From: Eledone cirrhosa
Taxonomy: Eukaryota
DNA: 64,000 nt
Assembly: GCA_964016885.1 (NCBI GenBank)
Contig: OZ024743.1
Location: 35,960,001-36,024,000 of the forward strand
Direction of reading: 5' to 3'
Under the pieces are notes generated by a model, which was not told the DNA's origin, did not search any database, and saw only the letters and a list, made by a program, of their open reading frames with translations. Positions 13,835-59,144 of this stretch are shown piece by piece. Each line of letters starts with the position of its first letter. Within the stretch, counting starts at the first letter, position 1. The position numbers and the translations under genes were made by a program.

Positions 13835-15137
13835 GATGAAAGGCAAAGCTAAGCCTTGCGGGGTTTGAACTCAGAACGCAAATGGGCGTACCTCTATGTC
13901 ACACAAGTATGGTGTCCGACGCTCTACCGATACTGCCAATCCACAGCATTGAGTGATATCTATAATACTACTAATAATGATTTCTAGTATAGGCACAAGA
14001 CCAGTAATTTAGGGGGAGGGGAAAGTCGATTAAATCGACCCCAGTACGTTACTGGTACTTTATTTTATCGACCCCGTAAGGATGAAAGGCAAAGTTAACC
14101 TCAGTGGGATGGCGTCCGACCCTCTACCGATACTGCCAAACCACCGCCCTTATAATACTACTAATAATTGTTTCTACTTTTGGCACAATGCCAGCAATTA
14201 CCCATACATTACTGGTACTTTATTTATAATACTACTAATAATTGTTTCTACTTTAGGCACAATTACCCAGTGCATTACTGGTACTTTATTTTATCGACCC
14301 CGTAAGGATGAAAGGCAAAGTCAACTCGGCGGGATTTGAACTCAGATCGTAAAGGGACGTAACTATGCTGCAAAGCATGGCGTCCGACCCTCTACCGATA
14401 CTGCCAATCCACCGCCCTTAATAATACTACTAATAATGATTTCTAAAATAGGTACAAAGCTGCGAAATATGAGTAAAAGTTAATGCTAATTGTAAACAGA
14501 GGTTTAATGGTTTTTCATTTATTTTCAAGGCCAGCAATTTCTGCTTGGGGTGAGGATGGAAAATGGATTAAATCGACCCTAAGTACTTGATTTGTACATT
14601 ATCTTATTGACCCCGGAAGAATGAAAGGCAAATTTGACCTCGGCGAGATTTGAACTCAAAACATAGGGAATCGAGACAAATAATTGTTTCTACTTTTGGC
14701 ACAAGGCCAGCAATTATCCCCGTAAGAATGAAAGGCAAAGTGAACCTCAGCGGGATTTGAACTCAGATTATAAAGGGGCGTAACTCTATGCTGCAAAGAC
14801 TGACGTCCGACCTTCTACCGATACTGCCAATAACAAATAATTGTTTCTACTTTAGGCACAAGGCCAGCAATTACCAGTGCATTACTGGTACTTTTATTTT
14901 ATCGACCCCGTAAGGATGAAAGGCAAAGTCAACCTCGGCGATAACAAATAATTGTTTCTACTTTTGGCACAAGGCCAGCAATTACCCAGTGCATTACTGG
15001 TACTTTATTTTATCGACCCCGTAAGGATGAAAGGCAAAGTTAACCTCGGCGGGATTTGAACTCAGAATGGCAAGGACCGTAACTCTATGCGTCAAAGCAT
15101 GGCGTCCGACCCTCTACCGATACTGCCAATCCACCGC
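13835..15137 (-). mobile_element. Head-to-tail cluster of about 8-9 complete and partial major-family SINEs
   Basis: Repeated aataattgtttctacttttggcacaaggccagc / aggatgaaaggcaaagt / ctctaccgatactgccaat blocks, all in the same orientation. Confidence 0.88.
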
Positions 15138-15834: not shown

Positions 15835-16072
15835 CGAATTTGAGTGTGGACAATAAAGCAGTAGGATTAGCAAGCAACATTGGCCATTGAAGTTGTATGG
15901 TCACAAGCACTGATGTCCAAACACAGTTCTTGGTTTGTCATTACAAGAATTGCGTTTGGACAATCATCGCCTGAAAACTGATTATTGTGCCAATCGTTCT
16001 TAGTCTTAGATTTATTGCCGATTTGTGGAGTCCTTGGATACAGCAGCTGTCTAAAGTGGTTTCATAAGTTTC
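15835..16072 (-). other. Exon-like unique island (possibly 5' UTR or start-codon exon of an unidentified gene)
   Basis: Minus strand: acceptor ttttaccacag|G and consensus donor TCG|gtaagt bound 238 nt of non-repetitive sequence. All three frames contain stops; a short ATG-MLLANPTALLSTLKF reaches the donor. Confidence 0.3.
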
Positions 16073-21269: not shown

Positions 21270-21349
<80 letters not shown>

Positions 21350-21397
21350 GATATTAACTATATTTATATGGAAACTATATTTATAAAACCATATTTA

Positions 21398-21458
21398 TTT
21401 CATTATATATATTTCAAGGATACCAAGTTACATTATGGTATGCCTTCATCAGACAAAA
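21398..21458 (-). ncRNA. Minimal type I hammerhead ribozyme, family B
   Basis: tttgt-CTGATGA-aggcatacca..tggtatcctt-GAAA-tatata-TA-atgaa. Confidence 0.75.
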
Positions 21459-22151
21459 TACAATATATAACAGTTTTATAAATAGACATTGACGTACCCC
21501 TTTAAAAATTGACCGTTGCTTTTGGAGGCCATCAGGATAGTGATTTGTTTACTTTAGTAAGTCATAGTGTTAAGAGTAAGTAAAAAGATGGAGAGAGAGA
21601 GAGAGAAACGTGGAGAAAAGAAAGGGAGAGATAGATAAAGAAAAATATTATATATATATAATGAAGAAAAACCAAGGTTAACAACGAAGACCGTTAAAAC
21701 ATTGTCCGTTAAAGACCATTTCATACTCAGCCTTCGTTTTATGCTTGCACACGTTGAACATTTGATATGGCACCTATTCTTATGATTTGACTTTGATCAA
21801 AGTTATATGTATTACGATTTGTATAAATAATTGCTAATTAATTGTTTCCGATTAACTTATTGTTTGATTATGTATGTAACATTGTAACCTGCATAGAAAC
21901 GTACGTAGAAATTAAAGAATGGTTTAAGTTGTTAAACTTGGTATTTTCTTCATTTTAAATATCAATGTTCCGCTAACAATACTTTCGAAGAGTATTTCGT
22001 TGGTTTTGAACTTCTTGCGCGCTGAGGACCTTTCGTGTACAGGGACTTTTCGTGTACAAAGTCTTGTCACCCTTTGTCACATATTGTTTTAATTTTCATT
22101 ATTTTTTATTTTAATAATATAATATATAATATCATTAATTATAATATATAA

Positions 22152-22608
22152 TAATAATTGTTTCTATTTTTGGCACAAGACCGTAAAGGGATGTAACTAT
22201 GTTAGAAAGCATGCCATAGTTACGTCCATAATAATTGTTTCTACTTTTGGCACAAGGCCAGCAATTACCCAGTACATTACTGGTAATTTATTTTATCGAC
22301 CCCGTAAGGATGAAAGGCAAAGTTAACTTCGTCGGGATTTGAACTCAGACCGTAATAGGACGTAACTGTGCTAGAAAGCATGGCGTTCGACCCTCTACCG
22401 GTACTGCCAAATCGCCTTCCATAATAATTGTTTCTACGTTAGGCACAAGGCCAGCAATTACCCAGTGCATTACTGGTACTTTATTTTATCGACCCCGTAA
22501 GGATGAAAGGCAAAGTCAACCTCGGCGGGATTTGAACTCAGATCGTAAAGGGACGTAACTATGCTGGAAAGCACGGCGTCCGACCCTCCACCGATACTGC
22601 CAATCCAC
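22152..22608 (-). mobile_element. Tandem cluster of major-family SINEs (two full, one partial)
   Basis: Consensus blocks repeated head-to-tail. Confidence 0.85.
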
Positions 22609-23104: not shown

Positions 23105-23346
23105 GTCTGGTTATCATTTATTTTTTATCATTTATTTTGTTTTGACCTGTTTAGCTTGAGTTGGTTTTAGGCTTGGGTGGTTAATGCCTTCTTGACCACC
23201 TTTTCAGTTTTGTATGGCTTCTTAACACATTGTTTAGCTCTGGTTTTTCTTAACTATTGAGCACTTTGCCAGTATCATTTCTGATTTTTGCGTTTCGCTT
23301 CGCTTTTCCTGCCCGCCGAAAATGCGATTCTCGCTGAATCTTTATT

Positions 23347-38603: not shown

Positions 38604-38975
38604 TAGATATATACGACTACATAAATGTAAACGCGGGCGCACACACACCCATGCACATGCACACACAGAGGTACACACACAGAGCAAAAATTATAATCAT
38701 GCATAGAGTGACATATATGTATATATATATATGTATATATATATATTATCTGATGAGAGGGTACCAACATTTTGGTACCCTTGTATATATATAATAAAAT
38801 AAATATGGTTTTATAAATATAGTTTCCATTTATTAACATCATTGATATTATACTCCAGAAAAACTGTAGAGTGCTTCGAATCTGTTATAAATAAATTTGT
38901 TGAATAACCAACAAATTATATATCTCTTTGCTTATGTATATATATATACGACTACATAAATGTAAAGGCGCGCAC
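38216..38975. repeat. Tandem repeat of about 145-175 bp, four units with internal (TA)n and (CA)n; unit 4 interrupted by a family B element
   Basis: tataatcatgcatagagtgaca-(TA)n-tacgactacataaatgtaaa-gcgcgcacac repeated. Confidence 0.85.
38746..38799 (+). ncRNA. Family B hammerhead, GAAA degenerate
   Basis: ttat-CTGATGA-gagggtaccaa cat tttggtaccctt-GTA..tatata-ataa; downstream tail matches 49370-49510. Confidence 0.6.
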
Positions 38976-46165: not shown

Positions 46166-46283
46166 CCGTTAAGGGTGAAAGCAGCGATTCTTTGCTTAAA
46201 CTTTAATCTGTTATTTTAATAAATTAATATATATATATAACATTAAAGTTTAAGCAAAGAATCGCTGCTTTCACCCTTAACGG
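46166..46283. repeat. Perfect 42-bp inverted repeat adjoining a hammerhead motif
   Basis: 46166-46207 is the exact reverse complement of 46242-46283. Confidence 0.9.
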
Positions 46284-46333
46284 ACTTCCTGATGATTTCT
46301 CCCGAATTAAACAGTTCTAGTCCTGTAGAAGCC
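46282..46333 (+). ncRNA. Family A hammerhead motif (G12 mutated)
   Basis: ggacttc-CTGATGA-tttctcccgaat-TAAA-cag..ctg-TA-gaagcc. Confidence 0.6.
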
Positions 46334-49040: not shown

Positions 49041-49129
49041 AATAAACCTTTAATTTCTTTAATCAAAATACGGCAATAGCTTATATTTCTAATTTCAAAA
49101 TCGGTCGGTGTTTCGAAAATATTCTTACT

Positions 49130-49189
<60 letters not shown>

Positions 49190-49198
49190 AGTAAGAAT

Positions 49199-49237
<39 letters not shown>

Positions 49238-49317
49238 CCCTTCACTTTCCAGGGATAACTTGAACCGTTAAGGCATATTATCCTTGGACATGTCAAATAT
49301 TTATAAAACATTTTGTA

Positions 49318-49375
49318 TTTTATCTGATGAGTGCGTACCAAAATTTTTGGTACCCTTGAAATATATATAATAGAA
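49318..49375 (+). ncRNA. Minimal type I hammerhead ribozyme, family B (intact core)
   Basis: ttttat-CTGATGA-gtgcgtaccaaaa t ttttggtaccctt-GAAA-tatata-TA-atagaa; predicted cleavage after 49369. Confidence 0.78.
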
Positions 49376-49972
49376 TAAATATGGTTTTATAAATATAGTT
49401 TCCATTTATTTAATATCATTGAATACTTCCTCCAGAAACCTTTCGAGTGCTCTGAATTAGTTATAAACATCTATATTTGTTGGATTTCCAACAAATTGAA
49501 TATTTCTTCTACATATATATATATGTATGTATATGCATATATTTATGTAATTAATATGGACGCCTGTATGTATGTATATATGGCGAGGTGGTGGTATTGG
49601 TGTTGATGACAAAGTGGTGGTGGCGGCGGAGAATGTATCGGTGATAAATTAGCGAGGAGATGGTGGAGGTGGTGAAAGTGGTGCTAATAGTCTAGACGAA
49701 AGTGAAACGTTCATTTATTTATCTATTTATATTTGCCAATGAAATTATCTATTAACTACCACTCCCGACGACGACGAAGACTTCCACCACCGCCACCGTC
49801 ACCACCACCACCACTATTACGACGACGATGACCACTTTTTTATCTGTATATGCATATGTGCATATTCGTATCCATATTTATATATGATGTGAAGAAGTGT
49901 GTGTGTTGTCAACACACACAAAAACAAAGGACAGAACAAAGGAGAGGCACAAAAGAAAGAAAAGAATCCCCA

Positions 49973-55831: not shown

Positions 55832-56005
55832 TGGCTTTTACAGGACTAGAACTGTTTCATTGGAGGAAATCATCAGGGCTTTCCTGATGATTTCCTTCGA
55901 ATGAAATAGTTCTAGTCTTGTAGAAACCATTTCTATATTAAATATTTATGCTCTGCTATGTATTGAGTACCTTACTTACTGTGGTTACCCCGATTGAACC
56001 CTGAT
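55826..56005. mobile_element. Family A element with inverted duplication: back-to-back hammerhead cores on both strands
   Basis: 55826-55878 mirrors 55882-55935; TCATCAG at 55870 and CTGATGA at 55884, each with its own GAAA and stem III. Confidence 0.75.
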
Positions 56006-58771: not shown

Positions 58772-59004
58772 GAGAGAGAGAGAGAGAGAGAGACATCGAA
58801 ACGGCCGGAGCTCAGCCGTCGGCGTCCTGACTCTTTTCCTATATATATGTATATATAACCAAAGATTAGTATGGTTCGTTGATTACTCAACGAATACAAT
58901 TTTAGAATAGATTAGAAGCACTCAACAGTGAAATTTTCCTGGAGTTTTTAATATTATTCGAAATGTTAACAAATGAAAAATATTCTCATAATCAAAATAT
59001 ATAC

Positions 59005-59064
59005 TTTATTATATATATTTCAAAGGTACTGTGTTGTTTTTTCAGTACGTCCTCATCAGACAAA
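59005..59064 (-). ncRNA. Minimal type I hammerhead ribozyme, family B
   Basis: tttgt-CTGATGA-ggacgtactg..cagtaccttt-GAAA-tatata-TA-ataaa. Confidence 0.75.
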
Positions 59065-59144
59065 ATATATGATTTGATATATGACATACCGCTACGGTCT
59101 TGATTATTCAATTCCAGTATTGACTGCCAATACTAATCTTTGGT

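Follow-up and report, generated by a model that had tools for sequence, protein, structure and literature searches.

Can the RNA end left by a self-cleaving ribozyme direct a retroelement into (TA)n? This question is raised by a short element in a 64,000-nt window of the Eledone cirrhosa genome (the window being the whole stretch of DNA analysed), where a minimal hammerhead with a helix III of UA dinucleotides lies between two (TA)n tracts. The original prediction had taken stem II changes among four copies as a sign of selection on the fold, and the cleaved UA-repeat end as a possible link between cleavage and microsatellite targeting. The idea of cleavage-directed targeting is refuted by counts across this microsatellite-rich genome of 3.0 Gb, and the part worth following is a hairpin that accompanies the element ends. 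Taken as a whole, the most satisfactory explanation is probably that of a hammerhead, predicted to cut as a dimer or with protein help, in the pseudo-LTR (pLTR) of a Hydra-clade element, in which reverse-transcription starts are set by the hairpin and targeting does not proceed via cleavage.

Fold and family of the element

49316-49377, + strand: minimal type I hammerhead, from motif reading, pairing and an imposed fold
49316-49323 and 49370-49377, + strand: stem I, TATTTTAT/ATAGAATA
49324-49330, + strand: core CTGATGA
49331-49357, + strand: stem II, upper arm GTACCA/TGGTAC
49358-49361, + strand: GAAA
49361-49368, + strand: palindromic helix III, ATATATAT; predicted cut after A49369
38742-38802, + strand: sister hammerhead, stem II GTACCA/TGGTAC
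21396-21460, - strand: hammerhead copy, stem II ATACCA/TGGTAT
59002-59067, - strand: hammerhead copy, stem II GTACTG/CAGTAC

The four window copies exist with the stem II arms claimed for them, and the observation of a minimal type I hammerhead with compensatory changes was confirmed: imposing the fold gave 78 paired cells out of 80 and three pairs changed on both sides, a result reached by 6 of 500 shuffles in a test that omitted the sixth upper stem II pair, which MAFFT had misplaced. CTGATGA is present in all four copies and GAAA in three, being damaged to GTA (38750) in the copy at 38742-38802(+), and the parts of a type I hammerhead (CUGANGA and GAAA core, UH cut site and three helices) are complete in three of the four. 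The invariant core is weak evidence in itself, because these copies were found via the core motif and, by eye, the core was altered in 3 of 27 copies picked independently of it. The four copies represent three distinct subfamilies, for each of which a first look at the genome gave over 2,000 candidates, and the stem II changes thus separate source lineages rather than neighbouring copies. Among the 17 haplotypes found at two or more loci (from 71 haplotypes and 174 copies), 7 of 21 pairs had changed on both sides, six of them in stem II (6 of its 9 pairs), and 98.6% of 357 cells were paired, a value that none of 500 shuffles reached and that stood at 58.9% or less in slid controls; the shuffles disregard the relatedness of copies, and their fractions are not probabilities. 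This covariation supports the proposed selection on the hammerhead fold in active lineages. Core, stems and palindrome are also retained across families with flanks beyond alignment.

The Rfam hammerhead model gave no match at the gathering threshold, nor within the best 150 of 464 E-value rows; minimal hammerheads of Penelope-like elements (PLEs) differ in form from canonical motifs. In the focal copy, the catalytic monomer fold has a calculated energy of -1.0 kcal/mol against a minimum free energy of -9.7 kcal/mol, and the helix III self-duplex one of -3.2 kcal/mol. The catalytic monomer lies 7-9 kcal/mol above the minimum, with stem II as the sole stable helix. Cleavage of the hammerhead is predicted only for a dimer or with the help of a protein.

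The elements that carry these hammerheads are bounded as follows:

49237-49512, + strand: solo pLTR plus tail, assigned to a Hydra-clade Penelope-like retrotransposon; 5'-truncated, no ORF
49206-49233: 5' (TA)n flank
49513-49524: 3' (TA)n flank
38742-38935, + strand: sister copy with damaged GAAA; hairpin 1 at 38852-38875; ends at site B
21349-21643, - strand: young-subfamily copy (98-100% identity among hits); hammerhead at 21396-21460; ends at site A
58858-59144, - strand: third-subfamily copy; hammerhead at 59002-59067; hairpin 1 at 58917-58945; ends at site B

A first look at the genome returned 3,232 candidates for the 278-nt element and 4,941 occurrences of a 31-mer across the cut; among 40 scored candidates, the focal element shared 93-96% identity with the 39 next-best. 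No Hydra ORF was found within the window, the four copies of which are solo pLTRs. The sequence of the focal element follows a GIY-YIG ORF and approximately 1.2 kb of UTR at locus L031 and precedes an ATG at L080. Longer copies contain, on one strand, RT, GIY-YIG and a UTR of 1.2-1.8 kb followed by the hammerhead, and in read-through copies the same repeat sits before the ATG. The order is RT-GIY-YIG ORF, long 3' UTR, hammerhead, site A, hairpin 1, a tail of approximately 90 nt, site B, hairpin 2 and ATG. Head-to-head inverted 5' copies and direct pLTRs are common, and the single ORF with RT and C-terminal GIY-YIG, the inverted 5' copy, the optional tail and the hammerhead in the pLTR are all features of Penelope EN+ elements.

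An intact ORF of 742 aa in a young-subfamily copy contains RIRWR (at 35), DKT, YRDD, CxCx5C, CxxC and CxH and lacks GxKF/Y. An RWK-like motif, DKT, CxCx5C, CxxC and CxH are together described as diagnostic of the Hydra clade (PMC8557442). In the octopus element, RWK is represented by the K-to-R variant RIRWR, DKT replaces DKG, the CxCx5C linker is present together with CxxC and CxH near the end, CCHH is absent as read from the list of Cys and His residues, and insertion is into (TA)n. The cut-to-cut unit of 4.1-4.2 kb (L209, L222, L226) exceeds the usual Hydra size of <3 kb owing to the long 3' UTR. By eye, the ORF resembles the Hydra-1_Obim rows, and GIY-YIG and RVT_1 clusters are among its Atlas look-alikes at 0.96-0.98; a direct Pfam scan of the ORF recognised neither RT nor GIY-YIG, and a PDB sequence search returned nothing useful. 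From ORF motifs and architecture we assign the repeat as the pLTR of a Hydra-clade PLE. In the young subfamily, L211:6175-8403, L209, L210, L222 and L226 have direct repeats of 97-98% identity around an uninterrupted 742-aa frame, which indicates recent activity. The element is a new family of a known kind: hammerhead, palindromic helix III, dimer cleavage and (TA)n targeting have already been published for such elements, so that the finding as originally given is an ordinary one. Classification as a non-LTR retrozyme was rejected, since the copies are solo, inverted or ORF-linked and form no tandem arrays of short hammerhead units.

The window has further features of its own. Family A, a second hammerhead-like repeat, lies at 46289-46328(+), 55884-55923(+), 55839-55876(-) and at about 10546 and 57491, with a head-to-head pair at 55.8 kb; the repeat is followed by the same RCTC...GAGT hairpin as described below and by TA ends, and is probably another Penelope-like pLTR. 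Short inverted duplications surround (TA)n at 49121-49199 and 46166-46283, the second of which resembles head-to-head element ends. A short interspersed repeat that is very abundant and also interrupts several element copies is present in tandem at 14830-15051 and 22225-22603, and a mir-219 precursor is located at 15903-15974(-) (Rfam 73.4 bits, above gathering).

Two ends beyond the predicted cut

49412-49428, + strand: end site A, located after 49421 and 52 nt beyond the cut; many sister copies have it as their short 3' end; from 2,220 junction matches and unselected copies
49503-49517, + strand: end site B (+143), with the element end at 49512
49429-49451, + strand: hairpin 1 (family ACTC-stem-TN-GAGT-GCT), 7 nt downstream of site A

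This element does insert into (TA)n, as the Hydra clade is known to do (PMC8557442). The 2,220 exact matches were obtained with one variant of the site A-(TA)n junction alone. In 46 copies unselected for their ends, the microsatellite started at A (+40 to +62) in 16 and at B (+125 to +160) in 14, i.e. at one of the two sites in 30 of 46 copies compared with a background of 9.7%; the other 16 lie outside these strict bins, and several of them stop at A or B all the same, the run there being short or imperfect. An overlap of 4-5 nt of UA between junction and target is frequent, and in some subfamilies there is almost none at site A. In the focal copy, the 5 nt after 49512 (ATATA) occur in the template as well as in the (TA)n target; letters peculiar to single subfamilies indicate that the UA overlap at site B is templated. 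UA microhomology alone was rejected as the end signal because UA tracts of at least 4 nt are common at unused places too (21 of 50 control windows).

Priming of insertion by a cleaved UA end predicts copies that end at the cut. The boundaries lie approximately 52 or 143 nt beyond the cut and almost never at it: genome-wide, 9,019 exact matches cross the predicted cut and 23 enter a TA run there. For 5' ends, the cut is no hotspot either, with 31 matches (about 18 of 30 true by eye) compared with 39 at a control UA tract, and these junction counts led us to reject the cut site as an element boundary on either side. Helix III does supply 9 nt of UA, and for 22 of the 23 TA junctions at the cut no downstream element follows within 400 nt, so such ends exist; these 22 may represent rare priming events, or equally deletions between two TA tracts. 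That cleavage leaves a (UA)n 3' end which sets the insertion site by annealing to (TA)n DNA is very improbable and, as the main route, refuted.

Variation of helix III points in the same direction, as its palindrome is conserved and its UA content is not. In 245 hammerhead-like hits (1.16 Mb of DNA), helix III was ATATATAT in 154, ATATGTAT in 30, ACTAGT in 17, ATGCGCAT in 14 and ACCACTGGT in 6, besides others, and in the repeated families it is always self-complementary, remaining palindromic as the sequence varies. All helix III variant families end in microsatellites, mostly (TA)n, including the families with ATGCGCAT, ACCACTGGT, ACCTCTGGT or ACAATGT, which end in (TA)n. File S2 includes no Hydra hammerhead with a (UA)n helix III, File S1 gives (TA)n as the target of 26 of its 27 Hydra families, and Naiads target (TA)n without canonical hammerheads (all PMC8557442). 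The hammerhead is therefore likely not the cause of (TA)n targeting. What stands of the earlier view of the (UA)n helix III is its self-complementarity, which would suit dimer cleavage as modelled; the role of its cleaved end in targeting does not. The compact hammerhead with helix III ACTAGT belongs to family F (L034:1034, L053, L054, L091 and others), which has one end 120-135 nt past the cut.

A bulged hairpin beside each end

In read-through copies, a bulged hairpin of the form RCUC-stem-UN-GAGY is found mostly 6-12 nt downstream of each end. In the DNA, RCTC-inner stem-TN-GAGY is usually followed by RCT, with ACTC/GAGT after site A and GCTC/GAGC after site B, the outer pair of the hairpin swapping between A-U and G-C. 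Hairpin 1 of the focal copy has a private A>C at its first base; hairpin 2 lies 9 nt beyond site B in read-through copies (L252, L263, L277) and is absent from the focal copy. The hairpin is present in 10 of 11 hammerhead-bearing repeat groups from this genome: it follows an end in subfamilies B1-B4 and families C, D, E, G and A, and two copies of it precede the ORF in a more distant family (35-43% protein identity). Hydra-like ORFs are linked to B1, B2, C, G and this distant family, and not to B3, B4, D, E, A and F. Family F (17 copies, with hammerhead and TA ends) gave no hairpin match.

Inner-stem pairing, which was outside the search pattern, was found in 47 of 78 cases compared with 33.7 after shuffling (p=0.0004) over 26 clusters that lack independence, some of them being antisense reads or unrelated hits, and in 139 of 282 compared with 113 over 94 singletons. 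By eye, the motif adjoins starts or ends in four of the six new Hydra consensi of PMC8557442, from three phyla (Amil-2, Ajap-1 twice, Ajap-2, and Crog as GCCC/GGGC), and was not seen in the Amil-1 and Obim consensi. The examined passages of that paper do not mention a hairpin at the ends, and a literature search that included few subscription papers, with the Repbase Hydra consensi outside its scope, found no description of one. In the window, the motif had 12 overlapping matches compared with 1.5 in shuffles, and further repeats carry it near microsatellites at 23237(+), 51158(-), 17670(-), 48529(-), 51888(+) and 57626(-); these are likely the ends of more families.

Judged from sequence, the hairpin likely positions internal reverse-transcription starts, and would thereby explain the Penelope 'tail'. 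The ends could instead be kept by flank homology, the host (UA)n of a read-through transcript pairing with the target and the hairpin being incidental, as every copy has a microsatellite after it and hairpin 2 is missing from B-ended ORF copies. Within one insertion, however, site A terminates the inverted arm and site B the main arm (of 17 extra hits, 14 stop at query 183-191), which implies that A is used internally without a flank, and the distance from hairpin to end is kept in families that cannot be aligned. We consider this explanation improbable. It is also unlikely, if less so, that the motif acts as DNA, i.e. as an endonuclease recognition or promoter element, and not as a start signal in RNA. 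In Drosophila virilis Penelope, the tail was reported to be required for endonuclease recognition (cited in PMC11167929) and to lie near a predicted promoter peak (PMC2377424), and a DNA role would agree with the weak RNA folding energy of the hairpin, which was no better than that of shuffles in four copies (z +0.5 to -0.9). Against it stand the G-U wobble pairs in the hairpin stems, the (TA)n targets without the motif and the position of the motif outside the cDNA that it would direct.

A short covarying hairpin at a near-fixed distance from both ends bears on what sets the 3' ends and the tail of PLEs. Makers of RNA-templated insertion tools would also have a use for a defined start signal of an RT-endonuclease that targets (TA)n.

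Templates and related systems

With the hairpin as start signal, each hairpin lies outside the cDNA it would direct, so that the element would need more-than-unit templates. Solo copies start mostly 85-140 nt upstream of the cut, whichever end is used: the 5' stop fell between -85 and -140 in 27 of the 35 solos that reach far enough, compared with 4 of 19 read-through copies (Fisher p=1e-4). The latter include hairpin 2 and extend up to -756, inside the upstream UTR, and none of the 41 called among 43 exact matches aligned back to an upstream ORF. The 5' ends were called by BLAST against other copies, which stops early in diverged subfamilies, and 4 of 20 second-set loci and 1 of 42 read-through loci were dropped without a 5' call. 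In B-lineage copies (e.g. L149, L179, L041), ATGTCA is conserved 35-45 nt upstream of the hammerhead core, often as the splice-donor-like GGTATGTCA. A Penelope-type intron ending in the hammerhead core, considered in view of donor- and acceptor-like letters in some subfamilies, was not adopted; the 0 matches of one spliced junction are uninformative because these elements keep introns.

In the mechanism that we propose, the endonuclease would nick (TA)n via its Zn-finger linker, as suggested in PMC8557442, and the protein would bind the bulged hairpin, with target-primed reverse transcription starting mostly 6-12 nt upstream and using 0-6 nt of UA microhomology. A transcript start at about -85 to -140 is plausible, by analogy with the Penelope pLTR (PMC2377424), and such transcripts, if uncleaved, would yield the thousands of solo pLTRs, often head-to-head. 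Two hammerheads in a pLTR-ORF-pLTR transcript could pair via helix III and release unit-length RNA, and this RNA, circularised or jumped across, could give rise to more-than-unit copies for the next round (model of PMC4209133), for which the hammerhead may have been kept. Circles from dimeric cleavage would account for the long copies and for the ribozyme being conserved, as would tandem arrays or template jumps. That a bulged hairpin RCUC-variable stem-UN-GAGY, found from corals to arthropods and in this genome, and present twice before the ORF, fixes both starts and creates the tail, while dimeric cleavage and circularisation supply more-than-unit templates, has in our judgement slightly less than an even chance of being correct.

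It is possible, though doubtful, that the hammerhead makes no templates and regulates or limits the transcript or merely rides along, the long copies being derived from tandem arrays missing from the assembly. More than 99% of the counted copies cross the cut, the 5' ends of read-through copies are scattered, and for PAc, hammerhead mutants were reported to insert normally and no RNA reads to end at the cut (PMC11167929). Against this view stand the retention of the fold across families with unalignable flanks and the failure of all 41 read-through copies to align back to an upstream ORF.

Among known systems, an octopus Hydra family with another hammerhead and a (TA)n preference is already listed in the supplement of PMC8557442; our literature search, which covered few subscription papers, returned no description of an octopus hammerhead. 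The Hydra clade including Hydra-1_Obim (Craig et al. 2021, PMC8557442) shares with the present element the single RT-GIY-YIG ORF, DKT, the CxCx5C linker, CxxC and CxH, the hammerhead near the 3' end, (TA)n insertion and inverted 5' copies. The element differs in having RWR or RWC for RWK, a unit of approximately 4 kb instead of <3 kb, ATATATAT as helix III compared with acca-a-tggt, and thousands of solo pLTRs. Minimal PLE hammerheads (Cervera and De la Pena 2014, PMC4209133) are likewise of type I, with a long helix II, a palindromic helix III and predicted dimer activity, show many compensatory changes between families and occur mostly as single dispersed motifs; here, in contrast, 10.1-11.1 is A-U, G-U or U-U and not G-C, and a C-C mismatch within stem II is conserved. 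Non-LTR retrozymes (PMC7229834; bioRxiv 10.64898/2026.07.22.740005) are also short, hammerhead-bearing, non-coding repeats related to pLTRs, whereas the copies described here are solo or head-to-head, form no tandem arrays and pass without a break into an autonomous ORF. In PAc Poseidon (Frangieh et al. 2024, PMC11167929), two internal starts downstream of the hammerhead similarly give a tail, both strands are extended and cleavage is unnecessary for insertion. Those starts lie inside the ORF at an AC-rich stem-loop, with a tail of 30-40 nt and no target homology, whereas in the octopus element the proposed starts lie in the 5' UTR approximately 90 nt apart, each upstream of its own hairpin copy and often with 4-5 nt of UA microhomology.
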